Shown piece after piece: positions 67 to 62,444 of a stretch of DNA of 64,000 nucleotides. Within the stretch, counting starts at the first letter, position 1; each line of letters opens with the position of its first letter. Where the stretch lies: NCBI GenBank assembly GCA_016181765.1, contig JACOYR010000004.1, forward strand, positions 115,937 to 179,936, read 5' to 3'. The DNA comes from Parcubacteria group bacterium. GTDB lineage: Bacteria; Patescibacteriota; Patescibacteriia; UBA2169. Under the pieces are notes generated by a model. The model did no database searches. It was not told where the DNA came from and worked only from the letters and a program-made list of their open reading frames with translations. The translations under genes and the position numbers were made by a program.

Positions 67-102
67 CCCCCTCCTTTACCAAGGAGGGGGTCAGGGGGTG
101 GT
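67..102 (+). repeat. Palindromic GC-rich repeat copy 1 (ccccctcctt-tacc-aaggaggggg-tcagggggtggt)
   Basis: Hairpin plus conserved YNAGGGGGTGG tail; intergenic between dnaJ start and upstream ORF. Confidence 0.7.
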
Positions 103-104
103 CC

Positions 105-1545: not shown

Positions 1546-1551
1546 ATCCTA

Positions 1552-1586
1552 CCACCCCCTAACCCCCTCCTCATTAGAGGAGGGGG
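1552..1586 (-). repeat. Palindromic GC-rich repeat copy 2, inverted orientation (ccaccccctaa-ccccctcctc-atta-gaggaggggg)
   Basis: Reverse complement matches the family consensus; lies just downstream of dnaK stop, may act as its terminator. Confidence 0.7.
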
Positions 1587-1596
1587 AACCAAGAGA

Positions 1597-5937: not shown

Positions 5938-6168
5938 TTAGTCTCTAACCGTCAAGCCACGATTCTGGCAGTCCCGCGCAACCCATACTACAAACCACAG
6001 GTGCGCCTCTACGAGCGCGTTGTGGGCCGCTTCGTCGCCTGCTTGGATGCGTTGCGCAAGCTCGCACTCCTCTTCGCGCGACAATCTGCGGCCCGAGTAC
6101 TTCCGAAGATCATCAAAGTACGAATCCTCCACAGAAGGAGGACCAAAACGCCGCTTGGTGCCGGCCAT
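5938..6168 (-). pseudogene. Truncated sigma-70 paralog fragment (regions 1.2-2.2 only, 76 aa)
   Basis: LSREEECELAQRIQAGDEAAHNALVEAHLWFVVWVARDCQNRGLT is clearly homologous to residues of the adjacent full sigma factor (LSREKEAELALRIHEGDAKARNELVEANLRFVVSVAREYQGRGLT) then terminates. Confidence 0.5.
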
Positions 6169-6368
6169 GGCGTTCCTCCTGTCTGGTGGACGTGAAATGA
6201 GCTTGGAAAAGACCTGCCCTCATCCTAGCAAAAAGATGTCCTGATGTGAAGCTCCCGTGGAAAATATACCGGCCAAAAACAAGGCTGTCAAGGATAAAAA
6301 AGGCCCACGGAACCTCGCGATTCCGTGGGATGGGAAACAGGCGTCGGAGCGCCTCAACATTGAAGCGC

Positions 6369-7376
6369 TTACTGTTGGGCCAAGGCTAGGCTCTTTCTCG
6401 GCCTTCCGGCGCGCCTGGCGCCGGGTTTATTGGAAGCAGGGCACTTCCGGTGCGCTTGGGTATACTTTGCCCGAAGCGCCTCTGCCGCGTCCAGCCGGGC
6501 CGATTCTCCGCCTGCGCCGTCAAACACGGCTAAGCGCTTCGCATTCGCACCGGCGCGGAGCAGATGGAGTGCCCGCTCCTTGATCTGACGCGCGCGCTCG
6601 CGCGTGACGTCTAACCGATGGCCGATCTGTTCCAAGGTCATGGGCAATTCCCCGTCCAAGCCGAAGTAGAGCCTCAAGACTTCAGCTTCCCTTCGGGGAA
6701 GCCTGTAAACCGCGGCATCAATCTGCGCGCGCATATCCTCCTGGTCCAGAACTTCATCCGGCGGCTCGGCGGATTCGTCCGCACGCCTTTCAAACAAGCT
6801 ATTGCCCGGATCACCCTGTATAGACGCGCTTCCGCTTGCGCCCCCTGCCTCCGCATCAAGGGAAATGGCGGGCTTGCTTGCAACGATTGAGCGTTCCACC
6901 TCATCCTCCGCGATGCCGAGATTCCCGGCAATATCCTCTGTTGTGGGGCTGGCACAGCCGCTGTGCTGCAGCTCGCGGGCGGCTTTGGATATCTTCAAAA
7001 GCAATTGGCTGGTGCCCGCGGAAAGCGGGACAACCCTGTCTTTCGCAATCGCCTGAAGCATTGCCTGCCTGATCCACCACACCGCGTAGGAGATGAACTT
7101 GAAGCCGCGCGTCTCATCAAAGCGCTCCGCGGCCGTGACGAGCCCTGTGTTGCCGGCGCTGACGAGCTCGTCCATGGTCAGCCCGCGGCCCTGGTACTCT
7201 CTGGCCACGCTCACCACGAACCGCAGGTTTGCCTCCACCAGCTCGTTGCGGGCTTTTGCATCGCCTTCGTGGATGCGCAGCGCAAGCTCTGCCTCCTTCT
7301 CGCGCGAGAGCGGAATTGAGTGCATGATGATGTTGAGGTAATGCCCCAACCCGTCCACATCGCTCCTGGTATTCAT
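6369..7376 (-). CDS. RNA polymerase sigma-70 family factor (regions 2-4) with basic C-terminal extension
   Basis: Region 2 (FISYAVWWIRQAM), region 3 and 4.2 HTH motifs present; 335 aa. Confidence 0.9.
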   Translation of the reverse strand: MNTRSDVDGLGHYLNIIMHSIPLSREKEAELALRIHEGDAKARNELVEANLRFVVSVAREYQGRGLTMDELVSAGNTGLVTAAERFDETRGFKFISYAVWWIRQAMLQAIAKDRVVPLSAGTSQLLLKISKAARELQHSGCASPTTEDIAGNLGIAEDEVERSIVASKPAISLDAEAGGASGSASIQGDPGNSLFERRADESAEPPDEVLDQEDMRAQIDAAVYRLPRREAEVLRLYFGLDGELPMTLEQIGHRLDVTRERARQIKERALHLLRAGANAKRLAVFDGAGGESARLDAAEALRAKYTQAHRKCPASNKPGARRAGRPRKSLALAQQ

Positions 7377-9386: not shown

Positions 9387-9461
9387 GCCGCTATCGTCTA
9401 ATGGTCAGGACGCCAGGTTCTCATCCTGGCAATCGGGGTTCGATTCCCCGTAGCGGTACCA
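9387..9461 (+). tRNA. tRNA-Glu (anticodon CTC), CCA encoded
   Basis: Cloverleaf: acceptor GCCGCTA/TAGCGGT, anticodon loop TTCTCAT, T-loop GGGGTTCGATTCCCC. Confidence 0.85.
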
Positions 9462-11053: not shown

Positions 11054-11087
11054 CCCCGCCTTACTAAGGAGGGGTTAGGGGAGGTTG
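11054..11087 (+). repeat. Palindromic repeat copy 3 (ccccgcctt-acta-aggagggg-ttaggggagg), supplies SD for dus
   Basis: Family consensus with minor degeneration, immediately upstream of dus ATG. Confidence 0.55.
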
Positions 11088-15729: not shown

Positions 15730-16668
15730 CTACGTTTTTTGTATAATGCGCAGCTTGGCGCTCCGCGAAGGCTTGTTCGCGAGCGCCTCGGCGCGGGTTG
15801 GTTTCTTGACTTTCTTGTTTACCAGGGTGATGGTTGGCGCTTGGGCGCGCGCCGCATCCCTAAAAAAGAATTTCACGATGCGGTCCTCCAGGGAATGGAA
15901 CGATAATACCGCCATGCGCCCGCCCGGAGCGAGCAGCGAAACCAGCTCGGGCAGGGCCCTCTTGAGGTTTTCCAATTCACCGTTGGTAGCTATGCGCAGA
16001 GCCTGGAAAATGCGGGTAGCGGGGTGGATGCGGTACCTACCGCGCCCTCCGGCTCCGCGCACAACTACGTCTGCCAGTTCTCGGGTGGTGTTGATGGGCG
16101 CGCGCTTGCGCGCAGCGGCTATTGCCTGTGCTGCGCGAGCGGCGTGCCGCTCTTCACCATATTCGGTGAATATTCGTTCCAGAGATTTCTCTGGCCAGGT
16201 GTTCACTATCTCGCGCGCGGTTAGCGTCCCCTGGTCAGAAAACCTCATGTCTAGCGGTCCTTCAGTGTTGAAACTAAATCCTCTAGACTCGTCTTTGAGT
16301 TGATCGCGAGATACACCCAGATCCAGTAGTACAGCGCTAACCGGATAAAATCGTTGTTCATACGCAATTCGTTTTGTTTCGGTATAATTTGCTTGTTTGA
16401 AGATGACTCTCTTTGCTTCCCCCTCCTTTGTCCTCAAGGAGGGGGCGAGGGGGTGGTTGTACTTTGCAAGGCGTTTTTGTGAACGCCCGATCGCGTCCTG
16501 GTCCCAGTCAATGGCGAGGAGCCTCCCGTTTGGGGCCGTTGCGTTAAGGATCGCTTCCGCGTGTCCCCCTCCGCCCACGGTTGCATCTATGACAAGCGCT
16601 CCGGGTTTCAAATTAAGCCCATTAACTGCCTCCTCAAGCATGACGGGAATTTGTAGGGATTCACTCAT
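15730..16668 (-). CDS. rsmH: 16S rRNA (cytosine1402-N4)-methyltransferase RsmH, containing an in-frame palindromic-repeat insertion
   Basis: RsmH motifs (DATVGGGGH, LLDLGVS, GFSF); repeat copy 4 at 16419-16457 translates as NHPLAPSLRTKEGEA. Confidence 0.9.
   Translation of the reverse strand: MSESLQIPVMLEEAVNGLNLKPGALVIDATVGGGGHAEAILNATAPNGRLLAIDWDQDAIGRSQKRLAKYNHPLAPSLRTKEGEAKRVIFKQANYTETKRIAYEQRFYPVSAVLLDLGVSRDQLKDESRGFSFNTEGPLDMRFSDQGTLTAREIVNTWPEKSLERIFTEYGEERHAARAAQAIAAARKRAPINTTRELADVVVRGAGGRGRYRIHPATRIFQALRIATNGELENLKRALPELVSLLAPGGRMAVLSFHSLEDRIVKFFFRDAARAQAPTITLVNKKVKKPTRAEALANKPSRSAKLRIIQKT
16419..16457 (+). repeat. Palindromic repeat copy 4, located inside rsmH coding sequence in frame
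   Basis: ccccctcctt-tgtcctc-aaggaggggg-cgagggggtggt matches family consensus. Confidence 0.7.
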
Positions 16669-17246: not shown

Positions 17247-17380
17247 TCTTTATCAACAGTTTTGGTGACTTATCCCCACTTCCATCCACCTTTCACCACT
17301 GTGCAGGTATTATACACCACTTTGCATTTCATCACAACCCCCTGCAAGAGGGGTTTTACGCACAACTTATTCACAACAGC

Positions 17381-17456
17381 ATTCCCCCTCCTTGATTTAA
17401 GGAAGGCTTGACTAAACATTCCCCCTCCTTGATAAGGAGGGGGTTAGGGGGTGGTA
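17381..17456 (+). repeat. Palindromic repeat copy 5 with partial tandem duplication, upstream of mraZ
   Basis: cattccccctccttgat occurs twice (17380 and 17418); second unit completes aaggaggggg-ttagggggtggt. Confidence 0.65.
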
Positions 17457-28890: not shown

Positions 28891-29072
28891 ATGGCGTGGA
28901 TGAGACAAACTAAAAAATCTGCGGAAATTCCGCAGACGGGGCATAACAGCTGATCAACCGCAATGGGCTCTACCTGCTGCTTGTTCCTCGGCAGGTCATT
29001 GAGCTCCGGAGAGCGCCTGCTGTCTGCGGAAACATAGGTTTAAGGGCATACTACTACAACCCGGGAATGGTG
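28891..29072 (-). promoter_or_regulatory. Possible rplJ leader / L10 autoregulatory structured 5' UTR
   Basis: ~180-nt untranslated leader with hairpins (atctgcggaaattccgcagac) before rplJ; identity not verifiable by eye. Confidence 0.25.
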
Positions 29073-32850: not shown

Positions 32851-34427
32851 ACGAGCGAGCGGGAGGCCATGTCCGCGGGAATGGGCAGGCCGAGGATAGT
32901 GAGGATGGTCGGGGCAACGTCCGAAAGCACGCCCCCAACCGTCATCTGGTGCAAGGCGAGATCGCGCTCAAGCGGTTCCGCGCGCTTGAACGCGTCCCCC
33001 ACCAGGGTGCACGGCACCGGATTGGCGCTGTGCTCTTTGATGATGTGCCCGTTTTCCCAATTCACCATCTCTTCCGCGTTTCCGTGGTCAGCGGTTATGA
33101 TGAGCACACCGCCCCGCTTGGCAACGGCGCGGGCGACCGCGGCAAGGGATTCGTCCACCGTGCGCAAACCCTGGATGGTTGCCGCGAGGTTGCCGGTGTG
33201 CCCCACCATGTCCGCGTTCGCGAAATTGGCGATGATCACGTCGTGCGCCCGGGACTGGAGGGACTCAAGGATCTTCCTGGTGATGTCCGGGGCAGACATC
33301 TCGGGCTTGTCCGCGTACGAGGCAACGCCCGCGGAGGGCACGATCACGTTCTCCTGGCCTTGGTAGCTCTTGTCCTCGCCCCCGTTGAAAAAGTAGGTCA
33401 CGTGCGCGTACTTTTCGGTTTCCGCGATATGGAGCTGTGAGAGCGAGGCTTCGGAAAGCACGCGCGAAAGCGGGTACGCAACGATTTCTTTTTTGAACGC
33501 GACCCGCACCGGAAGGTCCAGGCCGTAGGAAGACATGGCCACGAAGTAGAGGTCCGAGAGCAGGGTCCGGGGAAACTTATTGAACCCCGGCAGCACGAAC
33601 GCGGCAGTGAGCTCCCGGGCGCGGTCCGGCCGGTAGTTCGTAAAAATCACTGAATCCCCGGGCTGGACCCGGCTGGTGCCGGGATCTCCCGGATGGGAGA
33701 TGGCTGCGGGAACAAACTCCTCGTCGTACACCCCGCGTCCGTAGCTTGCCGCAAGCGCGGCAAGCGCGTCCGGAAACGTTTCCGCGGACTCGCCGCGCGC
33801 CATGGCGCGGTACACCTGCTCAATCCGGTCCCAGTGGTTGTCGCGGTCCATGGCCCAGAACCGCCCGGAGAGGGTGGCAATGGTTCCGGCCCCGAGCCGC
33901 TTGATGGCTTTATCAAGCTGCTTGAGGTAGGTTGCGGCGCTATTGTACGGCGTATCCCTGCCGTCCAGGATGAGGTGCAAAAAAACCCGCGAAAGCTTTG
34001 CCCGCGCAGCCAGTTCCAAGGTGGCGTAGATGTGGTCCGCCTGCCCGTGGATCCCCCCGTCAGAGAGGATGCCCGCAATGTGCAGACTGGAATTATGCTT
34101 CTTGCAGTGCGCAATGGCCCCCGCGAGCTCCGCGTTCTCAAAAAAGCTTCCGTTCTCAATGGCCTGGTTGATGCGCAACACGTCCTGGTACACGATCCTG
34201 CCGGCCCCGAGGTTAAGGTGCCCCACTTCGGAGTTGCCGGGCTCGCCCCAGGGCAATCCCACCGCCTCGCCGCTCGCGGCGAGGCTGAATGTCTGGTACT
34301 GCTTGAGCAAGGAGCCGTAAAACGGCAGGCGCGCCTCGGTGATGGCGTTGCCGCGCGAAGGAGGGGCAATCCCGAACCCGTCCAGAATCACGAGCGCGAG
34401 CGGTAGGTTGTTGGCGGATGCGGGCAT
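32847..34427 (-). CDS. gpmI: 2,3-bisphosphoglycerate-independent phosphoglycerate mutase, paralog 1
   Basis: Full-length iPGM with metal-binding and phosphoserine motifs. Confidence 0.9.
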   Translation of the reverse strand: MPASANNLPLALVILDGFGIAPPSRGNAITEARLPFYGSLLKQYQTFSLAASGEAVGLPWGEPGNSEVGHLNLGAGRIVYQDVLRINQAIENGSFFENAELAGAIAHCKKHNSSLHIAGILSDGGIHGQADHIYATLELAARAKLSRVFLHLILDGRDTPYNSAATYLKQLDKAIKRLGAGTIATLSGRFWAMDRDNHWDRIEQVYRAMARGESAETFPDALAALAASYGRGVYDEEFVPAAISHPGDPGTSRVQPGDSVIFTNYRPDRARELTAAFVLPGFNKFPRTLLSDLYFVAMSSYGLDLPVRVAFKKEIVAYPLSRVLSEASLSQLHIAETEKYAHVTYFFNGGEDKSYQGQENVIVPSAGVASYADKPEMSAPDITRKILESLQSRAHDVIIANFANADMVGHTGNLAATIQGLRTVDESLAAVARAVAKRGGVLIITADHGNAEEMVNWENGHIIKEHSANPVPCTLVGDAFKRAEPLERDLALHQMTVGGVLSDVAPTILTILGLPIPADMASRSLV

Positions 34428-34436
34428 AGAGGGGGC

Positions 34437-36008
34437 TTACGCCTTAAACAGGCTCTTGCCGGTCATCTCCTCGGGCTTCCGGATGCCGAAAAGGTCCAGG
34501 ATAGTGGGGGCCACATCCCCGAGGATCCCCTCCTGGCGCACCCGGGGCAGGGCAGGCCTGCCCGCGGATTCGGCGGGCCAGATCCAGCACGGAACCTGGT
34601 TCTTGGAGTGCTCGGTGTCAACGCGCCCGCTGGACAAATCTTTCATCTCCTCAATGTTGCCGTGGTCCGCGGTCACGATGAGTACGCCGCCCCTGCGCGC
34701 AACCGCATCAGCAACCGCGCCCACGGCCGCGTCCGTTGCCTTAAGCGCGATCCGTGCCGCCGCAAAGTCGCCGGTGTGCGCCACCATGTCCGTGGCCGCA
34801 ATGTTCGCGGCCACAAAATCATACCCCTCGGAAAGGGCGCGCACGATTGCTGCCGCGATTTGGGCGGTTGCCATTGCCGGAGCCTGGTCGTAGCGGTCAA
34901 CCGCGGGCGACGGGATCATGAGCCGCTTTTCGCCGGCGACCGGATCCGCGTACCCCCCGTTGAAAAAGTACGTCATGTGCGCGTACTTTTCGGTTTCCGC
35001 GATGTAGAGCTGGCGCTTGCCCGCGAGTACTGCGGGCAGGGTGCGGGTGACGTCTATGCTCGGGTAAGCCGTGAGAATGCCTTCCAGGTCCGGCCCGAAG
35101 TCCGAAAGCGCCACAAACTTCAGATTTTTTATGACCTTTTTTGGCTTGAACGTTTCCGAGTTCTTTCCGATGAAATCTTTCTGCACAAAAGGCTTGGTGA
35201 GCTGGCGCGCCCGATCCGACCGGTGGTTGAAAAAGATGATGGAATCGTTATCTTGGATCGTGCCGATGGCCCTGCCGCCCTCGCAAATGACTGTGGGCTC
35301 TATGAACTCGTCCGTAACGCCATTTTCGTAATTTGCGTCAAACACTGCAAGCGGCTCTTGGGCGCAGGGCCCCTCGCCCAAGACAATCGCGTTATAGATC
35401 CGCTCGGTCCTTGCCCACTCTTTTTTGCGGTCCATGGCAAAGAACCGGCCCGTGATGCTCGCGATTGCCTGGCCCGGGGCGAGCCGCCGCGCGAGGGACG
35501 CGCAGAGCTCGCGTCCCGCGCGCGGCGAAGAGTCCCGGCCGTCCGTGAACAAATGCACGTACACGCGCTCCACGCGTTCCCGGGACAGGAGTGCAAGCAG
35601 CGCGTACAGATGCTCGGGCGTTGCATGCGCGCTCTGGCCGTCCGAGAGCATGCCCATCAAATGCACGCGTGAGTTATTCCGCTTGGCATGGCCAATGGCT
35701 TCGCGGAACGCGGGATTTTTGTTAAAAGTGCCATCCGCGATTGACTCCGAAATGATCACCGGGTCCTGCTTGACCACCCTGCCCGCGCCCAAATTAAGGT
35801 GCCCTGCCTCGGAGTTCCCGTCCTGGTCCTTGGGCAGGCCAACGTACTGGCCGTGCGCCCAGAGCCGCGCGGTCCGCGACTCGCCCTCTATTTTATTGAA
35901 CAAGGGCAGCTCGGTTCTTGTGATGGGATTTGATTCGGAATCCGGAGCAAGCCCAAAGCCGTCCAGGACGAGCAGCACGACCGGCCCTAAAATTTTTGTG
36001 TTCTGCAT
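34437..36008 (-). CDS. gpmI: 2,3-bisphosphoglycerate-independent phosphoglycerate mutase, paralog 2 (divergent, roughly 45% identity to paralog 1 by eye)
   Basis: Same domain architecture; tandem with paralog 1. Confidence 0.9.
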   Translation of the reverse strand: MQNTKILGPVVLLVLDGFGLAPDSESNPITRTELPLFNKIEGESRTARLWAHGQYVGLPKDQDGNSEAGHLNLGAGRVVKQDPVIISESIADGTFNKNPAFREAIGHAKRNNSRVHLMGMLSDGQSAHATPEHLYALLALLSRERVERVYVHLFTDGRDSSPRAGRELCASLARRLAPGQAIASITGRFFAMDRKKEWARTERIYNAIVLGEGPCAQEPLAVFDANYENGVTDEFIEPTVICEGGRAIGTIQDNDSIIFFNHRSDRARQLTKPFVQKDFIGKNSETFKPKKVIKNLKFVALSDFGPDLEGILTAYPSIDVTRTLPAVLAGKRQLYIAETEKYAHMTYFFNGGYADPVAGEKRLMIPSPAVDRYDQAPAMATAQIAAAIVRALSEGYDFVAANIAATDMVAHTGDFAAARIALKATDAAVGAVADAVARRGGVLIVTADHGNIEEMKDLSSGRVDTEHSKNQVPCWIWPAESAGRPALPRVRQEGILGDVAPTILDLFGIRKPEEMTGKSLFKA

Positions 36009-36024
36009 AGTATGCGTACTGATA

Positions 36025-37284
36025 TTATGCGGACTGGCGCTCTATGTCCATAAGCCTATTATACTTTGCAACGCGCTCGCCTCGCGAGGGGGCGCCTGCC
36101 TTGAGGTACTCTGCCCCAGAAGCCACGGCAAGATCACTGATATATGCGTCATTTGTTTCTCCGCTGCGGTGCGAGACAACCACGATGATGCCGTGCTTTT
36201 GCGCGAGCTTGATGACCTCCATAGTCTCGGAGAGCGTGCCGATCTGGTTTGGTTTGACGAGAATGGCGGTCATGGCCTTCTCTGCTATCCCCTTTTCCAG
36301 CCGCTCTTTGTTGGTGGCGAGAAGGTCATCCCCAATCACCATAATACCTTCCTTCGCAACGCTGCCCGTGAAAGCGCGGAACGAATCCCATGCGTCTTCG
36401 CTAAACGGGTCCTCAATGCTCGCAAGCTGGTACTCGCGAATCCACCGGCTGTAGAGCTCCCCGAGCGTTTCCGTGGTGTACGTTTTTGCGGGCGGGGCAA
36501 CGGTGTACGCTCCATCAGTATAGAACTCGCTCGCTGCCGCGTCTATGCCCAAGGCCACGTCTATGCCCGGGGTAAAGCCCGCGTCTATGATGCTTGAGCC
36601 GAGCAGGTGGAACATGTCCTCCACGTCCGGGACGTCCGGAGCATACCCTCCCTCATTGCCCACGTCGCTGTCCAGGTCGCGCTTGACCAGTTCCCTCCCG
36701 AGCAGGTGGAAAATCTCGCTTCCGATTTCAATTTTTTCGGCAATTGTTTCCCCGGCGCGCGGGATGATCTGGAACTCCTGGACCGTAAGATTTGTGTCCG
36801 CGTGCCTGCCGCCGTTGACCAGGTTCATGATGGGAGCGGGCATTGAGGCGTGGCGCTTGAATCCAAACGTCTCCTGCAGGGAACGGTAGAGCGGCAGGCC
36901 CCGCCCAACGGAAACCGCGCGCGAAACCGCGAGGGAAACCGCGAGAATGGCATTTGCGCCGAGCTTGGATTTGTTCGGGGTGCCGTCCAAGCGGTTCATA
37001 ATGCGATCAATGCGTTCCTGATCCTCTCCATCTTCGCCAAGCAACGCTCCCGCGATTTTGACATTCACGTTGCTGCACGCCTTGAGCACGCCTTTCCCGG
37101 CATACCGGTCCGGATTGTTGTCGCGCAGCTCAAGGGCCTCGTGCGTGCCTTTAGACGCGCCCGAGGGCACGGCTGCCGCGGCTTTAGCGCCGTTTAAGAG
37201 GCGGACCGTAGCCATGACCGTGGGCTCGCCCCGCGAATCCAGTATTTCCCCGGCTTCAATGTGAGTTATGGCAAACTTATTCAT
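36025..37284 (-). CDS. eno: Enolase
   Basis: Canonical enolase signature throughout (SHRSGETED-like, LLLKVNQIGT-like). Confidence 0.97.
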   Translation of the reverse strand: MNKFAITHIEAGEILDSRGEPTVMATVRLLNGAKAAAAVPSGASKGTHEALELRDNNPDRYAGKGVLKACSNVNVKIAGALLGEDGEDQERIDRIMNRLDGTPNKSKLGANAILAVSLAVSRAVSVGRGLPLYRSLQETFGFKRHASMPAPIMNLVNGGRHADTNLTVQEFQIIPRAGETIAEKIEIGSEIFHLLGRELVKRDLDSDVGNEGGYAPDVPDVEDMFHLLGSSIIDAGFTPGIDVALGIDAAASEFYTDGAYTVAPPAKTYTTETLGELYSRWIREYQLASIEDPFSEDAWDSFRAFTGSVAKEGIMVIGDDLLATNKERLEKGIAEKAMTAILVKPNQIGTLSETMEVIKLAQKHGIIVVVSHRSGETNDAYISDLAVASGAEYLKAGAPSRGERVAKYNRLMDIERQSA

Positions 37285-40061: not shown

Positions 40062-43000
40062 TTAGAGGCCTAAGAGTGATTTGATGGGCGCGAACACGCG
40101 GAACGGGTTAAAGCCGGATCCAGAGGAACCCCGCTTAGTGGAAGCTCCCTGCACGGTCCCGCAGTCAGCCGGGCAGGATGACGTGGTTTCTCCGGTGCCG
40201 CAGTATGCGTTGCCGCACGTTTCCGAGGTATAGGAACTACTCCCGCAGTCGCCCGGGCACTTGGAAGAATCTTCCCCGTTGCCGCAAACGCCATCGCAAC
40301 TCGGGCCGTAATCATAGCTGCCGCTTCCAGTGCTTCCACTGCTTCCGCAGTCGCTCCAGCACGACGTGGATGTTTCGCCGCTGTCGCACGCGCCATTTCC
40401 GCAGTATGATCCCGAACTTCCGCCCGTGGCGCCGGTGCTGGAACAGCCGGTTGCGGGCGTGGCGGCACAGGAATACAGGGTTCCGTTCGCGGTGTAGTAA
40501 TTGAGCATGGACGAATCAAAACAGTTGCCGTCCGAACCCATAGTGTGCCAGCCGCTCCCGTATTTGGTGTCACAACTAGAGGTTGTTGATGTCGTGCCGC
40601 CGGTGAATGCGGAACAGCCAGGGTCCGCCGCATCAATGAAGCCATCAGCATCATTATCAACGCCGTCCGCGCATTTGAGCTGCGTGTCTTCGTAGCTGCT
40701 CGCCGCCGTTCCGCACCCGGATGATGAGTAATAGCAGTAGCTCGTTGAACCACTGCTGGTACTGGCGTACCAGCAACAATTTGAGGCAGCGGTGCACGAC
40801 GCCTGGCCAGCATACGAACCGCATGAGCCATACTGGCCGCTTGAGCCGCCGCAGTCGCTTGGGCAGCTTGAGTACGATTCATTGGACTCGCACACGCCGT
40901 CGCTGTCGCAGAATGAGCCGCTTCCCCCGCTCGTGTACGCGGAACAGCCCGGGTCCGCCGCATCAATATAGCCATCAGCATCATTGTCAACGCCGTCCGC
41001 GCATTTGAGCTGTGTGTCTTCGTAGCCGCCGCTCGTGGTTCCCCCGCAATCAGCAGGGCACGACGTGGAAGATTCGCTGGAACCGCAGATGCTGTCCCCG
41101 CACGTGTCGGTCCTGCACGCCGTAGGGCAGCCCGTGCTGCTGTAGGTACAGCCACTCGGGCACTTTGAATAGGAGCACGAGTAGGAGCCCGTGTTGTTGT
41201 TGTACGCGTTGATGGGGCACACCCCGCCGGAAGAGAGGCAGCTCGCCGGGCACCCGGTTGAATCGTAGTTGCACCCATTCGGGCATGCCTTGTAGTTGCA
41301 CGTGGTTCCGGTGGTCTGGTTGTTGTACTGGTTCGCCGGGCACGAAGGGGCGGTGTAGCAGCCCGTGGTACAGCCGGTTGAATCATAGCTGCACCCTGAC
41401 GGGCACTTCTTGTAACTGCACGAGTAGCCGCTGGTATAGTCGTTAAACTCAGTTGCCGGGCACGAAGTTGTTGTGCCGGACTTGCAGTCGCTCGGGCAGG
41501 ACGACGTGGTTTCTCCGCTTCCGCAGAATCCATTGCCGCATGTCTCCTTTACTTCTACTTCACTGGCGCCAGAACAATCCGGAATGCCGAAGTTCCTCCA
41601 GTCTCCGTCATCCCCTGCGTTGGATTTCCAGGAAAAATTCGCTTTTGGAACCTTGGTGCACTGCGCGGCAACGCCTGCGATGAAGCTTATGTACTCGCTG
41701 TCCGTGCGGTTCAAAATGTATGAGGTTTCAGTTTGGCCGTCGCTGAACTTCCAGGTCTTGCTCACCCAATTCTTGCTGCCCGGGTCTTCTGGGGCTTTCT
41801 CCGGGGCTGTGCACTTGCCCAGGAACTGGTCGTAATAATCCCCCGGGGCGCAGGTTGGGGAGCAACCCTTGGCGCAGCCAAAATTATCGTACAAGCAGTA
41901 GCTTGAGCCGCTACACGAGGGCGTGCACGAGAGCGGGCAGTTGCCCACCACCGAACTGTCCTGCCTGCAGTACCCACTGTCGTCCCACACCCAGCCGCGC
42001 TCGCACGAGCCCTTGCTTGGTGGTACGTAATCACTGCTGTTCAGGCACTTCTTGATCTGCTGTGCCCAGAACTGGCCCTTGGCGCACTCCTGGATAAAGG
42101 TTCCGCACTGCCCAAAGTATTTAACCGCAACGCCGCGAGCGCGCGCCTTGCAGTCATTGTCATAGGTGGCGTTGTCGCTGCCGCACACCGGACTGTAGAC
42201 ATCCGGGCAACCAGTTCTTCCCGTTGACTGGATGCACTCGCCGAATCGGGCGCACCCCTGCGAATCTTTGACAATGTCGCGCACCTGCCCCTCGGGACAC
42301 CCGAGCGGCGATTGCGCCGAAAGGTCCGGGCAAATGGCTACCTGCTGTATGCACGAGGGCTGGCCGCAGGGATCCCCGGGCCGGGGTGGAACAGGCTGTT
42401 CTCCGGGATTGCACGCCCGCGGCGGATTGTAAACCGCCGGACAGATGAGCGTCTGTTCGCAATACCCTCGGCTTGAGTTCCACCGCTCAAAAGGACCGCA
42501 CTGCGCAAAACCAACCGGTGGACGGTAGTAGGGGTCAACCGCGCACGAAGTTCCATTCCAGTACTGGCCAGCTGCGCATGAAACACTCGCCAAGTCAATC
42601 TCATTTTGGTACACGCACTGGTTGCGCCCCTGGTCAAAAAAGCCGCCCGGGCCGCAATCCTTGAACGTGTGTTCAACCGTTGCCCACTCGCACCCCCGAA
42701 CCCCGGGGTTCGCCGTACAGTACTGCTCGCACTGCTCCGGGGTAGTGCACTTGCCGGCCAGGGGGTTGTTCTCTTTGAAATCTTTCCGCTCCCGCTCAAT
42801 GCGGTTGCGCTCCCGCACCAAGTCGTCCGCCAGGCGCTCTTTTTCGTGCCGCGCCTCCTGCTCCAAAAACGTCAGCTGTATCTGGCGGCACGCGCTGTCG
42901 CACCAGGGGTCATTTTGCATGCGAGCCTCAAAAATCCGCTTGCGCTCGCCAAACACCTCGTCAGACCGCGATACCTGATTATTGATTTTTTCTTCCCACA

Positions 43001-44948: not shown

Positions 44949-45066
44949 GTGTTTTATTTTTGATTTCTTTTAGGTTGTGAGTGAAGAGGTACACTACTAT
45001 TACACCACATGCGCGGTGTTTGCACAAATGGAGTTGTGGATAACTACGCCTGGGGACTTTTGACCT

Positions 45067-45172
45067 CAATCGGCAGTGTAAATGTAAACATACTCCCCTT
45101 GCCCTCGCCCTCTGATTCGGCCCAGACGCGGCCGCCGTGCGCTTCTATAATTTTTTTGGCGATGAAAAGCCC
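45067..45172 (-). repeat. Diverged duplicate of the histidine kinase 3' end (encodes ...[40 protein letters not shown] on minus strand)
   Basis: ~106 bp aligning to 46263-46368 with differences concentrated at codon third positions. Confidence 0.75.
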
Positions 45173-45247
45173 TCTTCCGGACCCACCGGAAAATTTTGAC
45201 AAAAAACCAACACGGAATTTTCATTAACTCGGCAAGAGAAATTTAAC

Positions 45248-45285
45248 AATCAACGACCTCGGGCAGCAATGTCCAAGGTCGTTTT
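45248..45285 (+). terminator. Stem-loop acgacct...aggtcgt followed by T6
   Basis: 7-bp stem plus TTTTTT at the cassette edge. Confidence 0.4.
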
Positions 45286-45912
45286 TTACAGCGTCTTTAT
45301 CACTCCTTCAATTTTCTCTCGATCGGCCGTATTAAAATGACAGGTATCAATAAAGTGAGTATATTTTCCCGGCTCAACAGACAGCTCTCCAGCTACATAC
45401 CGTTGCAATGCCACGAACTCATTCATATTCATGAGCAGCTTTCCATAACAATCACTGGCACGCATATGTACGTGAATATCAAGCTTTCCGTCAATAATCT
45501 GAAACCATAGGATCTGTAAGCAAGGAGCTATGGATCCATGAATATCCACTTCTTGTTTCCAAATAGAGGCTTGCGCTCGTTTTCCGTTTGGTTTTTCTCT
45601 GAGATATTCAATAACATTTTGAATTTGATTTGGCTCACTGTCAAACAGGCGTTTGCGATATATCTTGGTCCAGTCATGGGTTACTTGATCTGCATGCTCA
45701 CCTGTCAGTAAGTAGTGGCTAATAGTATCTACCTGGCCTTTCGGCATACCAAAACGAATATCAAACAAATCTTGAATCGCATCTTCTACCTCAATAATCA
45801 TCGCTTCATCGCGGAATATTTCGTCATTCTCCGTGGCGCGGCCATTGTTATACAAGTCTTTCATGGCTTTTCGCCATGCCTGGCTGATAGTTGCTGTTTT
45901 TATGGTAAGCAT
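45286..45912 (-). CDS. Short thymidylate synthase-like protein (ThyA fold, methanogen-type size, 208 aa)
   Basis: SIAPCLQILWFQIIDGKLDIHVHMRASD aligns with ThyA catalytic-Cys segment (APCHxxxQFYVxDGKLSCQLYQRSxD); AT-rich. Confidence 0.55.
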   Translation of the reverse strand: MLTIKTATISQAWRKAMKDLYNNGRATENDEIFRDEAMIIEVEDAIQDLFDIRFGMPKGQVDTISHYLLTGEHADQVTHDWTKIYRKRLFDSEPNQIQNVIEYLREKPNGKRAQASIWKQEVDIHGSIAPCLQILWFQIIDGKLDIHVHMRASDCYGKLLMNMNEFVALQRYVAGELSVEPGKYTHFIDTCHFNTADREKIEGVIKTL

Positions 45913-46013
45913 TATACTGAATTCATAGTTGGTTAGGCAGTACTGCGTCCATGCCAGGGGCTAGCGGAACTCTTTTTAGTATACAACCTCTGGCGCGGAA
46001 AGGAAATCACACA

Positions 46014-46277
46014 ATGGAGCCATATATCGGTATCACCGGATTTACCACAAGGAAACAAACGGTGGTGATTGCCGACGGACTCTCGGCTGGTACTATTACG
46101 TTCCTTGATCCTTTGACCATGCATTCCTCTAAGTTAAGTATTGATGCCGAAAGTCGGCTGCGGACCGCAGATGATGAGCTCGATATAGAACGCTGTCGTG
46201 CGTATATAATTCAATCATTGAAATTTTTTAGCAGATTTGGTGCGGCCACTCTTATTCCACCGCAATCGGCAACGTAA
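46014..46277 (+). CDS. Hypothetical small protein (87 aa) inside the cassette
   Basis: ORF with plausible SD (aaggaaa); no motifs. Confidence 0.3.
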   Translation: MEPYIGITGFTTRKQTVVIADGLSAGTITFLDPLTMHSSKLSIDAESRLRTADDELDIERCRAYIIQSLKFFSRFGAATLIPPQSAT

Positions 46278-48432
46278 ATGTGAACATGGAGCCCTTGCCC
46301 TCGCCCTCTGATTCGGCCCAGACGCGGCCGCCGTGCGCTTCTATAATTTTTTTGGCGATGAAAAGCCCGAGGCCCGATCCGCCGGTGTGAATGCGCGTGG
46401 TTGCCTCTGCGCGCGTGAACTTCTGGAACAGCCTGTCCATTTCAATGGGGTCAATGCCCATTCCCGAATCCCGCACCTCAAACGTGATGAGCGACTTTGA
46501 GCGCGCAAGCCGCACGTTGACCCATCCGGTATCAGTGTACTTGATGGCATTGTCCACCAGGTTCATCATCACGTCGTGGATCTTGTCCCTATCAAGGCTC
46601 ATCGCGGGCAAAGGCCCATCCGGCTTCTGCACCGTAAGCTCTAATCCCTTGGTCTTTGCCTGATGCTGCAAGTCCCCAACCACCTCATCCACGATCTCCT
46701 CAAACCGGACGCTTGACTTGGTGAGTTCCAGCCTGCCCGTCTCAATGCGCGACACGTTCAAAAACACGTCAATGAGGCGCGTGAGCCGGTCCGAGGAGCG
46801 GAAAATGCGCTCCAATTCTCCGCGCTGTTCCGGAGTGAGTACTCCGTAATCGCCATCCAAAAACATGGACACATAGCCCTTGATGCCGGTGAGCGGAGTG
46901 CGCAATTGGTGCGCGGCGATGGAGAGGAACTCGGATTTTGACTGGTCCAGCTGCTTTAAGTGGGCGTTTGCAACCTGCAGTTCCGCGGTCGCATCATCCA
47001 CTTCTTTCTTGAGTTTGACCGCGAACTGCTGGGCTTCGTCGTAGAGCTTGGTGCGGCCCAAGGCGGTCGCCATCTGCGGGGCAAGCACGTCAAACGCATC
47101 AATAAGTTGCCTATCAAAAATATCTTTGGAAAGTTTTGGCCCCAATGCCACGATGGCAACCAGATTCCCCTCAACCATCACGCGCCGCGCAAGCGAAATG
47201 TCCAAGCCGTGGAGTTCATCAACAAGGAGCCCAATCCGCGCGTACTCGCCCTTGGTCGGAGCCTCGTTCTGCTCAAGCTCAACCTCTTCGGCCACGAGCA
47301 CCGGCTCGCTTGAGAGCGCGGAAACGAGCGTTGAACCGGCCGCAATGGCGCCCGTATCCCCGGCAAGCAGGGCATACCCGCCGCTCGCCTCATCCAGGAT
47401 GTAGACGCGCGCGTGGCGCACCTTGAGCCGCTCTTGAAGCATCATGGACACCGCGCGCACCAAACCCTCCTGGCTCACCTCCTCGGAAATGGACAGGCCC
47501 ATGTCGCGCAAGAGCTTCTGGTAATCCGGCTGGCCGCGGAAAAAAATGTTCGCCGTGATTGTGGCAAATAGCCGATCAAACGGGTCGTGTAAAAAGATGA
47601 CTAAGAGCGCGAGCACGCCCCCCACCAAGAGCGACTGCGTGCTGAATAGGTCCCTGCCGAACGCGCCGAACGCGAAGAGTACAATCTGCACGAACACGAA
47701 CGACGTTGCGAACGAAAACGCGTACTGCAGCAGGCGGCTCGCGACCAGCCGAATGCTCATAAGCTTGTACCGCACAATGGCAATGGCGATGAACGTAATC
47801 AAGAAGAGCGTAAACAAAGGCCCGAGCCAGATGTAGCGGTAGTCGCCGACCAAGGGCAAGATGAGGTTCGTGGTTGCGCCGCCTGCGGTGGTGATGAGCG
47901 TGCCCAAGAGCACGTACCGAATCTGCAGCTTCCGGATGCCGATGGACTCTCTGCCTTTGCGCCAGAGCAAAAAGAACGCAATGCCCATGTACATGATAAA
48001 GTACACAGTGTACACTACATACCCCCACCCAAGTATCACATCCTTGCCCCAGGGCTGGATGAACAGGGCCTCAATGTGGAGCGGGGTGAAGACCATGATG
48101 CAGATGGCGAGGAACGGAACTCCGAGGGCCGCCTCGGAGAGGCGCGAGATGGGGTTCTTGGCGTACGGGAACGCGCGCGCAAACAGCAGGAACACGTATG
48201 CGATGAATGCCGCGGAAATGTAGTAGAGCCGGGCCCAGTTGAGGGCGTGCGAGAGCGTATCCGTGCTCTCAAAAAACGCCAATCCGAGCGACCAGCCGAA
48301 GATGCCCAAGGTTACCAGGCCGAATGCTACGTTGATGCGGCTCCTCGCGAGGCGCGCGAAAATCAAAAACCCAAGGACAAGGTTGAGCCCTCCAAACACC
48401 AGCAAAACTATGTCCCTGGGGTCAAACGCCAT
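46252..48432 (-). CDS. Sensor histidine kinase with multi-TM sensor domain (7TM-like), HisKA and HATPase_c domains
   Basis: H-box (SIAAHQLRTPL), N, G1, G2 boxes (GGSGLGL); N-terminal ~7 TM helices. Confidence 0.9.
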   Translation of the reverse strand: MAFDPRDIVLLVFGGLNLVLGFLIFARLARSRINVAFGLVTLGIFGWSLGLAFFESTDTLSHALNWARLYYISAAFIAYVFLLFARAFPYAKNPISRLSEAALGVPFLAICIMVFTPLHIEALFIQPWGKDVILGWGYVVYTVYFIMYMGIAFFLLWRKGRESIGIRKLQIRYVLLGTLITTAGGATTNLILPLVGDYRYIWLGPLFTLFLITFIAIAIVRYKLMSIRLVASRLLQYAFSFATSFVFVQIVLFAFGAFGRDLFSTQSLLVGGVLALLVIFLHDPFDRLFATITANIFFRGQPDYQKLLRDMGLSISEEVSQEGLVRAVSMMLQERLKVRHARVYILDEASGGYALLAGDTGAIAAGSTLVSALSSEPVLVAEEVELEQNEAPTKGEYARIGLLVDELHGLDISLARRVMVEGNLVAIVALGPKLSKDIFDRQLIDAFDVLAPQMATALGRTKLYDEAQQFAVKLKKEVDDATAELQVANAHLKQLDQSKSEFLSIAAHQLRTPLTGIKGYVSMFLDGDYGVLTPEQRGELERIFRSSDRLTRLIDVFLNVSRIETGRLELTKSSVRFEEIVDEVVGDLQHQAKTKGLELTVQKPDGPLPAMSLDRDKIHDVMMNLVDNAIKYTDTGWVNVRLARSKSLITFEVRDSGMGIDPIEMDRLFQKFTRAEATTRIHTGGSGLGLFIAKKIIEAHGGRVWAESEGEGKGSMFTFTLPIAVE

Positions 48433-58669: not shown

Positions 58670-58747
58670 TGGCAGGGAGGGAAGGATTTGAACCTTCATC
58701 CTCTGGCTTTGGAGGCCAGCGCTCTAGCCTTTTTGAGCTACCTCCCT
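58670..58747 (-). tRNA. tRNA-Trp (anticodon CCA), CCA encoded
   Basis: Reverse strand cloverleaf: AGGGAGG acceptor, anticodon loop CTCCAAA, T-loop GAAGGTTCAAATCCTTC. Confidence 0.85.
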
Positions 58748-61160: not shown

Positions 61161-62408
61161 CTATATATTTGAAACCAGCTCTGTTTCTTTTGCGCCGCGC
61201 TTTTTGGCTTCAATCTTGCCTTTGGTCTTGGGGCTTATGACGAGCCGGGTTGGAATGCCGATTAAATCCGCATCTGCGAACTTTTCCGCGTTGGACGCTT
61301 CACGCCTATCATCCCATAACACTTCTTTTCCGCCCGCGGCCAGCGACTCGTACACTTTTTCGGACTGCTGGTATACTGCATCATCATCGCCCAAGCTAAC
61401 CAGGTGATAAGCAAAAGGCGCAACTTCCTCGGGCCAGATGATGCCATGCTCGTCATGGTGCACTTCCACGATCGCGCCCATTAAACGGGAGATGCCGATG
61501 CCATAGCAGCCGATGATGACCTCTTTTGATTTCCCGCTTTCATCCGTAAACTTGAGGCCGAAATCTTTGGAAAACTTGGTTCCCAAATCAAAGATATTTC
61601 CGACTTCAATAGTCTTGAGCTCTTTGACGGGTGTGCCGCAGTCAGGGCACGCCACCCCCCCTTTCTTCCCCCCCTTACCAAGGGGGGGATTGAGGGGTGG
61701 TAGATTTGCGATTTCCTTATTTTGCGCAAACCCGCAATCGCACGCAAAAATCACATCTTCCCCGTTCTCGGTTGCAACCTGGAACTCGTGCGAGTACTCT
61801 TTGGTGAATGACCCGCCCGATGCCTCGGTGATGATCGCGTCCAAGCCGCAGCGCTTGAAAACTTTTGCGTACGCGCCTTTCGCCTTTTCGTAGTATAGCT
61901 TGAGATCTTCGGCAGACGCGTGGAAGCTGTACAAATCTTTCATCAAAAATTCGCGGCCGCGCAGCAACCCGGCTTTGGCGCGCAGCTCATCCCTGAACTT
62001 GGTCTGAATCTGGTACCAGGCCCGCGGCAAATCGCGGTAGGAATTAATGTGCTTTTTGGCCAAAGGCACAATCACCTCTTCGTGGGTCGGGCCCAGGGCG
62101 TACTCGGATCCCGCGCGCGAGGGAACTTTGAACAGCACGTCCATGCTGTCCCATCGCCCGGTCTTCTGCCAGTTCTCTTTGGGGTGCAGGGCGGGCAGGG
62201 AAACTTCCTGCCCGTTGATTGCATCCATCTCCTCGCGCACAATAGCGCTGATATTTTCCAGAACCCGGACGCCTAATGGCAGGTATGAATACACGCCCGC
62301 CATCAACTGGTCAACAAACCCGGCGCGCACTAAAAAATTGTGGTTTGCGCTCTGCGCGCTCCCCTCGCCGGTTTTGCTTGTTTTGCTGAAGAGAAGCGAC
62401 TGCCGCAT
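61161..62408 (-). CDS. proS: Prolyl-tRNA synthetase, minimal form lacking editing insertion, with in-frame palindromic-repeat insertion between two Cys pairs
   Basis: ProRS class II motifs (MRQSLLFSKT, FRDE, SFH); repeat copy 7 encodes LPPLNPPLGKGGKKGGV. Confidence 0.9.
   Translation of the reverse strand: MRQSLLFSKTSKTGEGSAQSANHNFLVRAGFVDQLMAGVYSYLPLGVRVLENISAIVREEMDAINGQEVSLPALHPKENWQKTGRWDSMDVLFKVPSRAGSEYALGPTHEEVIVPLAKKHINSYRDLPRAWYQIQTKFRDELRAKAGLLRGREFLMKDLYSFHASAEDLKLYYEKAKGAYAKVFKRCGLDAIITEASGGSFTKEYSHEFQVATENGEDVIFACDCGFAQNKEIANLPPLNPPLGKGGKKGGVACPDCGTPVKELKTIEVGNIFDLGTKFSKDFGLKFTDESGKSKEVIIGCYGIGISRLMGAIVEVHHDEHGIIWPEEVAPFAYHLVSLGDDDAVYQQSEKVYESLAAGGKEVLWDDRREASNAEKFADADLIGIPTRLVISPKTKGKIEAKKRGAKETELVSNI
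61654..61703 (+). repeat. Palindromic repeat copy 7 inside proS coding sequence
   Basis: cccccccttaccaaggggggg-attgaggggtggtag, family consensus with C/G-homopolymer stem. Confidence 0.65.
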
Positions 62409-62444
62409 ATAGGGATATTCTACCACGCACGCTCTAAAAATCAA

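Follow-up and report, generated by a model that had tools for sequence, protein, structure and literature searches.

When a copy of a dispersed repeat is found in frame inside a housekeeping gene, the question arises whether it was inserted there, what type of repeat it represents, and whether the peptide it adds is of any consequence to the protein. The case in point is rsmH, encoding the 16S rRNA m4C1402 methyltransferase, in a stretch of 64,000 nucleotides (nt) from a Parcubacteria group bacterium (contig JACOYR010000004.1 of assembly GCA_016181765.1), hereafter the window. This gene occupies positions 15730-16668 of the minus strand as a single uninterrupted open reading frame (ORF) of 312 aa, and an initial annotation, made from the sequence alone, reported in it a repeat copy at 16419-16457 through which the ORF runs unbroken; the position is off by no more than 1-3 nt, with the full motif covering 16419-16458 and the inserted block approximately 16416-16458, and the frame does traverse the element without any stop codon. 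As argued below, the segment is quite probably a selfish, structure-defined triplex-motif repeat, translated in rsmH as a tolerated loop, the peptide being a passenger.

In the first instance, the status of the segment as an insertion can be judged from a protein alignment of the window RsmH with its 23 best relatives, Parcubacteria or Patescibacteria where annotated, in which 14 extra residues occur only in the window and in a single ortholog, P0001 (85% identical). In RsmH orthologs at 78-81% identity, '..AKYQN' is directly joined to 'RV..' with no insert; the extra residues are missing from P0002-P0008 and, at the DNA level, from L001, L003, and L004, where a clean gap of 42 nt, i.e., 14 codons, is observed. 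The same 42 nt are present in L005, the Logan assembly of ERR3858122 that encodes P0001, with 41/42 positions identical to the window. The length of the loop between the IDWD and LLDLG motifs could be measured in the 63 homologs where both flanking motifs were locatable; 58 of them have 43 aa there, and a loop of 57 aa is confined to the window and P0001; the initial annotation had described this variable loop as longer than in Escherichia coli RsmH, which holds, with 14 residues more than in the closest orthologs and about 16 more than in E. coli. The alignment to orthologs that it proposed as a check places the insert as lineage-specific, and ancestral sequence, which it expected to be betrayed by the same peptide in unrelated lineages, finds no support, since none of the 63 measurable homologs besides the window and P0001 holds an element-like peptide. 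The segment is furthermore similar to the intergenic copies of the window (74-87% over 37-40 nt). An assembly artefact is excluded because the window, L005, and P0026, a partial protein 100% identical to the window RsmH, are independent sources. The alignments thus show the rsmH copy to be a lineage-specific insertion of 42 nt common to two lineages.

Read on the plus strand, which is the G-rich and potentially triplex-forming one, the copy has the sequence CCCCCTCCTT-TGTCCTC-AAGGAGGGGG-CGA-GGGGGTGGTT and can be divided into five parts, namely (i) the pyrimidine arm CCCCCTCCTT (16419-16428), (ii) loop 1, TGTCCTC, of 7 nt (16429-16435), holding the sole position that differs from the L005 copy, (iii) the purine arm AAGGAGGGGG (16436-16445), complementary to the pyrimidine arm, (iv) loop 2, CGA (16446-16448), which is TTA or TCA in canonical copies, and (v) the putative third-strand tail GGGGGTGGTT (16449-16458), a mirror of the purine arm. 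The edges of the 42-nt indel, as placed by the DNA and protein alignments, are ambiguous by 1-2 nt, and the inserted unit corresponds to the motif plus about 2 nt. In its layout, the segment is a copy of a repeat of the BoxC/PIT/TM (triplex motif) class and, more precisely, of the class II purine motif: the two arms form a stem within the 6-15 nt and at most one mismatch of this class (10/10 Watson-Crick pairs), the third segment GGGGGTGGTT mirrors AAGGAGGGGG in 10/10 G.G or T.A triads with 0 mismatches to the Hoogsteen code, and the motif is present in multiple, over-represented copies. As such, the single strand 5'-CCCCCTCCTTTGTCCTCAAGGAGGGGGCGAGGGGGTGGTT-3' is, by the design of its motif, a candidate intrastrand triplex. 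ViennaRNA predicts the hairpin alone; the predicted hairpin comprises 10 bp, with -22 kcal/mol on the RNA sense strand and -10.7 kcal/mol on the DNA G-strand.

The initial annotation viewed the segment as one copy of a dispersed repeat, and rightly so. Chance would predict 0.12 occurrences of the core word CCCCCTCCTT in the window; there are 7, a number reached in 0/100 shuffles, and repeat finding together with inspection yields six loci, i.e., 65-102, 1549-1588 (minus), 11054-11086, 16417-16458, 17419-17456, and 61653-61703. A generic class-II finder, which had no tuning to this sequence and accepts any pyrimidine/purine stem from 8 nt upwards, loops of any kind, a tail in the mirror code, and no more than one mismatch, returns exactly these six loci, with 7 motifs, and nothing in 30 dinucleotide shuffles; all six loci pass the stem test with total mismatches of at most one. 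In every window copy, the purine arm is followed by a 3-nt spacer (TTA, TCA, or CGA) and then by the tail GGGGGTGGT(A/T). A scan of the whole window at Rfam gathering thresholds gives no match at the repeats, and a literature search for the literal repeat sequence retrieved no relevant paper.

While two of the six loci lie inside genes (rsmH and proS), the others are intergenic. The copy at 67-103 (plus) fills the spacer of two minus-strand genes, with AAGGAGG 10 nt before the downstream ATG; the copy at 1550-1586 has its G-strand on the minus strand and sits between the dnaK stop codon and the ATG of the next gene; the copy at 11054-11086 (plus) belongs to a subfamily with 9-nt arms and the tail GGGGAGGTT, and separates a gene of 525 aa from dus, where relatives show overlapping stop and start codons (TAATG). 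These three operon-internal copies end 5-10 nt before the next ATG and provide the only obvious Shine-Dalgarno (SD)-like sequence there. The last intergenic copy, at 17421-17456 (plus), lies about 175 nt upstream of mraZ; adjoining it, a degenerate, tail-less partial copy is visible at about 17384-17410, with the direct repeat ATCAAGGAGGGGGAATG. As a side observation, the GC skew is negative on the plus strand along the whole window, and five of the six motif G-strands are on that strand; the copies are too few to speak for a replication-strand bias of the motif.

The defining feature of the repeat is the correspondence between tail and purine arm, in which the tail mirrors the arm under the triads G.G-C, A.A-T, and T.A-T. 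Among perfect 9-bp pyrimidine/purine hairpins that fall outside the search pattern in the loci retrieved, the tail next to the stem forms at least 8/9 mirror triads in 56/269, and a displaced control gives 5. When the arm varies, the tail follows, AAAGAGGGG being paired with GGGGAGATT, AAGAGAGGG with GGGTGAGTT, AAGGGGAGG with GGTGGGGTA, and GGGGAAGGG with GGGATGGGG. In the pattern-matched set, the great majority of tails have T or A as their free base, a few having C and hardly any G, and a T comes after it (1.5 bits); positions that the pattern leaves free are still conserved, loop 1 prolonging the stem and loop 2 reading YTR, and conservation ends at the motif edges, with an information content of about 0 beyond. 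Across variant stems in more than 10 phyla, the tails are thereby shown to obey the G.G/A.A/T.A mirror code.

Other structures were considered for the tail. Its pairing with the pyrimidine arm in RNA, in the manner of an anti-SD/SD hairpin, was ruled out because a tail that pairs in this way would have to repeat the purine arm directly, and asymmetric stems show it to be the mirror instead. A G-quadruplex was likewise rejected, as it leaves the positional A/(A or T) correspondence unexplained; for TMECO, the E. coli form of the triplex motif, it has been excluded by nuclear magnetic resonance (NMR) (PMC4666352).

With respect to taxonomic spread, the hairpin-plus-tail pattern matched at least 120 stretches in a scan of one genome per GTDB species. 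The matches listed come from Bacteroidota isolates (Hymenobacter, Pontibacter, Pedobacter), Nitrospirota, Acidobacteriota, Cyanobacteria, Chloroflexota, Planctomycetota, Proteobacteria (Thiomargarita, Sphingomonas), and many Patescibacteria, and are often arranged as inverted pairs or two-tailed palindromes. This wide spread had escaped the initial annotation, as had the G-rich tail with its mirror code and the second in-gene copy in proS. Between close relatives, presence or absence is lineage-specific both in genes and between genes; for instance, L003 (at about 4689) and L004 (4622-4676) encode identical RsmH but diverge completely right after the murE stop codon, exactly at the L004 motif copy, which is consistent with the local instability reported for triplex-motif sites. 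Separately, a Thiomargarita metagenome-assembled genome (MAG) displays a head-to-tail tandem array of the motif with a 41-nt period (L087, 7128-7250) and seven copies in 8 kb, and in IMG/VR the motif is found on 109 viral-contig stretches (L248-L327, e.g., the repeat-dense L258), with up to 11 copies in 11 kb.

As for the protein, the identity of the host ORF is secured by PF01795 homologs (E down to 1e-163), by PDB matches to RsmH/MraW (1WG8, 3TKA, 1M6Y), and by the retention of the RsmH invariant residues in the protein alignment. The C-rich strand of the insert is read by rsmH as (N)HPLAPSLRTKEGEA, residues 71-85 being NHPLAPSLRTKEGEA (coding nt 16458-16414) with no stop codon; judging from this reading frame, the insert would be translated as a Pro/Gly-rich loop extension. 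An AlphaFold2 model built from the alignment with the relatives has a mean predicted local distance difference test (pLDDT) score of 85 and superposes on solved RsmH and METTL15 structures with template-modelling scores of 0.83-0.92. In this model, residues 71-86 are irregular (pLDDT about 60-77) between a helix (57-66) and a strand (88-92), so that the insert is modelled as an extension of the connection between helix B and strand 3 of the Rossmann fold. In the class-I methyltransferase topology, the N-terminal end of strand 3 is on the side of the sheet opposite the S-adenosylmethionine (SAM) pocket; following this general topology, and not a measurement on the model, the loop should lie opposite the SAM site. 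The site appears permissive since unrelated inserts of 7-9 aa occur in the same loop of P0029 and P0043 (NSPEADASEK and NPPEADVPSAQK). Between the window rsmH and the other insert-bearing ortholog, the synonymous divergence (dS) is about 0.48 and dN/dS is 0.23, and the gene has therefore been under purifying selection since the insertion. Altogether, the intact ORF, the invariant residues, the dN/dS of 0.23, and the fit of the model point to an RsmH that keeps working with its insert.

The rsmH copy is not the only one of its kind. In the window, proS, encoding ProRS (61161-62444, minus), hosts in frame a palindromic two-tailed copy at 61653-61702, which adds 12 aa (LPPLNPPLGKGG) in the Zn-ribbon loop. 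The window ProRS matches HYT31_03390, from a Parcubacteria MAG at NCBI, with 100% identity, and the insert is missing from an 87%-identical ortholog and nearly all others; at the DNA level, the site is empty in L127, carries a one-tailed motif in L126 and the two-tailed palindrome in the window, the indels being of 21 and 36 nt. Beyond the window, eleven further genes bear a copy, mostly in Patescibacteria or unclassified metagenome contigs, and Pfam domains flank or span the insert in most. In-frame copies verified with Pfam concern ATP synthase gamma/atpG (Saccharibacteria), MgsA/RarA (at two different sites), Lgt, a beta-CASP RNase, TsaE, UvrB, GatB, GltX, a sulfite reductase (NIR_SIR), and an FG-GAP protein; 15 copy-bearing genes are confirmed by Pfam or PDB. 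In long open frames, 34/166 copies are found in the genome set and 24/91 evaluable ones in the metagenome set, i.e., 20-26% versus 67% for random positions, so that the element, though present in genes, is selected against there, a depletion to be expected because it would usually be deleterious inside genes. The in-gene copies examined are all without stop codons in the host frame, and the in-gene indels with an empty-site comparison are all multiples of 3 nt (3/3, i.e., 42 in rsmH, 36 and 21 in proS). Both orientations and several frames are read, giving unrelated peptides such as xHPxTPSLxKEGE, PLLxKEGxGEV, and PPPxxGGGxGVV; the common feature of the in-gene copies is, on this comparison, the DNA and not the peptide.

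From these elements, a mechanism can be proposed. The repeat would spread as selfish, structure-defined DNA through a process acting on the single-stranded G-rich strand, and its propagation or retention would depend on that strand being folded; action on single-stranded G-rich DNA is suggested because the mirror code is readable only there and RNA is reported not to adopt the purine motif (PMC4666352). Copies surviving in genes would be those with a length that is a multiple of three, free of stop codons, and located in permissive surface loops. Transcribed on its C-rich strand, the rsmH copy would form at most a hairpin in the mRNA before being translated into a Pro/Gly-rich loop, and the inserted peptide would have no function of its own.

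The synonymous sites give this reading a hint of support, and several considerations weigh against it. Within the 14 inserted codons, 0 synonymous changes are seen between the window and L005 versus about 3.5 expected (the proportion of synonymous differences, pS, is 0.35 elsewhere in the gene; P ~0.01), and the sole difference is non-synonymous, in DNA loop 1; such a pattern hints at constraint on the DNA motif or homogenisation, and not at peptide conservation. The hint is only suggestive because other parts of rsmH match the insert in raw identity, 126/870 other 42-nt segments of the gene being also at least 41/42 identical, and an exceptional conservation of the element by raw nucleotide identity was rejected on this count, which leaves the synonymous sites as the remaining argument. 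The missing synonymous change could equally result from gene conversion or from two independent insertions at the same site. Loop 1 of the rsmH copy, with 7 nt compared to 3-4 nt in the other window copies, goes beyond the ITxF limit (1-6 nt) though it remains within Hoyne's 0-10 nt; loop 2, with 3 nt, respects both limits. At the rsmH site, neither a convincing target-site duplication nor terminal repeats beyond the motif are seen, the ancestral target being uncertain since orthologs differ there, and no associated transposase was found, RAYT/IS200 genes not having been screened for. The word mobile thus stands for presence/absence patterns only. Lastly, the TMECO triplex was not detected in vivo by dimethyl sulfate (DMS) footprinting (PMC4666352).

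Of the alternatives, the one that survives best derives the repeat from an ordinary transposon, as a REP/REPIN moved by RAYT or as a miniature inverted-repeat transposable element (MITE) moved by an insertion sequence (IS) transposase, the triplex potential being incidental. It has a small chance of being right. The repeat is indeed short, palindromic, dispersed, and often in inverted pairs, as are REPINs, and HUH/Y1 enzymes act on single-stranded hairpins, which fits a propagation dependent on single-stranded DNA. On the contrary, the GTAG/CGTC tag accompanies few copies (6/119 and 3/119), nothing is conserved beyond the motif, no target-site duplication is visible in rsmH, and a mirror code maintained across unrelated stems is not needed by a transposase recognition site; Holder et al. 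also found TMECO not associated with mobile elements (PMC4666352). For the propagation step as such, a RAYT- or IS200-like enzyme is a live rival.

Alternatively, the repeat could act at the RNA level, as a regulatory hairpin or a portable ribosome-binding site (RBS); within the dcw operon, the rsmH copy would then serve to pause translation, to start it internally, or to signal mRNA stability. Both the arm AAGGAGG and the tail GGAGGT resemble an SD, and the other arm an anti-SD; the three operon-internal copies end 5-10 nt before an ATG, and the one at 11054-11086 has split dus from the SD of its relatives while its tail now gives GGAGGT 7 nt before the ATG; the RNA hairpin is, moreover, predicted to be stable. 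This geometry holds locally for those three window copies, and the portable RBS was rejected as a family-wide function since start codons located 3-12 nt downstream of about 500 other copies are not enriched (1-11% vs 5-9% in displaced controls). The covariation of the tail under the mirror code is left unexplained by any RNA pairing, and inside rsmH the SD-like arm has no start codon after it. The motif is also abundant in Bacteroidota, which make little use of the SD. In addition, PIT elements are devoid of promoter or terminator activity in E. coli (PMC4666352). A role of this kind is accordingly regarded as distinctly unlikely.

Only a slim probability is granted to the view that the inserts are adaptive peptide modules conferring a new interaction or property on RsmH, ProRS, and others. 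That the insert was kept through a dS of about 0.48 in a gene under purifying selection, and that many housekeeping proteins of the candidate phyla radiation (CPR) carry such loops, can be cited in its favour. Nonetheless, the same DNA is found between genes, and in genes it yields, in both orientations and several frames, peptides as unrelated as NHPLAPSL.., PLLxKEGxGEV, and PPPxxGGGxGVV; it is the synonymous sites that are conserved, in line with the nucleotide motif, the sole change being non-synonymous and in a DNA loop; the insert is modelled as an irregular loop of low confidence, and copies are depleted from coding sequence.

Less probable still is an insert that remains untranslated, either cut out of the mRNA or skipped by the ribosome in the manner of T4 gene 60 or the mitochondrial 'byp' elements. 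Such a scenario would suit a compact GC-rich hairpin inside a coding sequence, but excised or bypassed elements need neither a length in multiples of 3 nt, as in 3/3 in-gene indels, nor freedom from stop codons, as in every copy examined, and neither intron-like nor take-off/landing features nor any Rfam match are seen. Finally, the possibility that nothing was inserted, i.e., that the loop is ancestral or convergent and of low complexity (slippage could generate such C/G-rich sequence) or an assembly artefact, is effectively refuted by the alignments and the loop-length survey, considering the exact indel relative to orthologs 78-81% identical, the intergenic copies 74-87% similar, the independent assemblies carrying the insert, and the short loop in 58/63 homologs.

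Besides the repeat, other features of the window can be mentioned. Rfam recognises a ribosomal protein L10 leader and two tRNAs, at 28901-29047 (-), 9387-9458 (+), and 58673-58747 (-). Upstream of mraZ, a TATAAT box with four GTGG(T/G) boxes at intervals after it, at about 17255-17330 (minus), has the look of a promoter with an MraZ operator, and the non-coding sequence there also holds an inverted repeat with 40-nt arms 75% complementary and separated by 15 nt (17989-18028/18044-18083), unrelated to the triplex motif. Tandem paralogous genes with a period of about 1578 nt and two other duplicated pairs (33076-36488; 45063-46385; 5951-7307; 40154-41547) are listed together with a set of direct repeats of 57-71 nt.

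Returning to the putatively selfish triplex-motif repeat, its in-gene copies amount to a natural experiment in which synonymous sites separate constraint on the protein from constraint on the DNA structure, whereas filled and empty sites in close relatives provide material on how a 40-nt motif is copied. It would explain a class of lineage-specific inserts in CPR housekeeping proteins (RsmH, ProRS, GatB, GltX, UvrB, ATP synthase gamma, and others), which complicate alignment, phylogenomics, and structure prediction for the CPR. A broader and more speculative proposition, held here as rather doubtful, is that triplex repeats form a class of structure-defined selfish DNA colonising essential coding sequences across Patescibacteria, and more rarely other phyla and viruses, with the three-strand code selected even in genes. 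Were this true, they would be a general, hitherto overlooked origin of lineage-specific Pro/Gly loops in proteins of the CPR, as well as a natural system showing that a single-stranded DNA triplex is recognised in vivo by copying or repair machinery.

Respective to known systems, the initial annotation likened the insertion to the in-frame Rickettsia palindromic elements (RPEs). As an analogy the comparison stands: in each case a selfish palindromic repeat is tolerated within the reading frames of unrelated housekeeping genes, in a reduced genome, sits at permissive surface positions, seems to be translated, and also occurs between genes; like for RPEs, insertion preserves the ORF of the host gene, here in rsmH, proS, and the eleven further genes. 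As a statement of membership it does not. According to PMC10969869, citing Ogata et al. (2000), RPEs (families 1-10) measure about 100-150 bp, have one conserved peptide for each family, and are confined to Rickettsia, and they are not known to have a triplex or mirror-tail design; the present repeat, set apart by size, taxon, and design and not by a consensus comparison, is of 36-42 nt (40-42 nt in rsmH), of the BoxC/PIT/TM class, hosted by a Parcubacteria, and read in several frames and orientations.

With REP/REPIN sequences are shared the format of GC-rich hairpin repeats of 20-40 nt, the hundreds of copies, the frequent inverted pairs, and the mostly extragenic location (PMC3733652). Unlike them, the repeat has a GTAG/CGTC tag within 8 nt in only 6/119 copies upstream and 3/119 downstream, a tail in mirror code is foreign to REPs, and these lie outside genes by their very definition (PMC3733652). 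Intragenic ERIC sequences and other prokaryotic MITEs are comparable in being small, non-autonomous, and now and then joined in frame to a host gene (Delihas, 2007; PMC10969869); MITEs differ by terminal inverted repeats, target-site duplications, and a size above 100 bp, and neither such repeats nor a duplication is evident here.

The closest counterpart is TMECO, for which the consensus is CCCTCNCCC-N3-6-GGGNGAGGG-N3-GGGNGAGGG, with TTA or CCG as loop 2 (Holder, 2015; PMC4666352). It forms a stable triplex in vitro by circular dichroism (CD) and NMR, has no promoter or terminator activity and no link to mobile elements, and shows local instability; it has been reported from Proteobacteria, other triplex motifs being known from Cyanobacteria and others (PMC4666352). 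As in TMECO/BoxC/PIT, the present repeat comprises a pyrimidine arm of 9-10 nt, loop 1, a purine arm, a loop 2 of 3 nt (often TTA), and a mirroring G/T(A) segment, for a total of about 35-40 nt, in dispersed, near-identical, and over-represented copies with inverted or palindromic pairs, instability between close relatives, and no known transposase. It departs from TMECO in its stem, which is CCCCCTCCTT/AAGGAGGGGG and not CCCTCNCCC/GGGNGAGGG; its sequence lies outside the TMECO consensus, and it is a different family of triplex motifs. It also departs in its host, a Parcubacteria (CPR) genome, and in its location. In an incomplete literature collection, where absence is no proof, no report was found of triplex motifs in coding sequences or of in-frame repeats in CPR proteins. 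In E. coli MG1655, TMECO is 'always located intergenically' (PMC4666352), whereas copies of the repeat described here lie in frame in essential genes; against this reported restriction, what appears to be new is the occurrence of triplex-motif copies within coding sequence.

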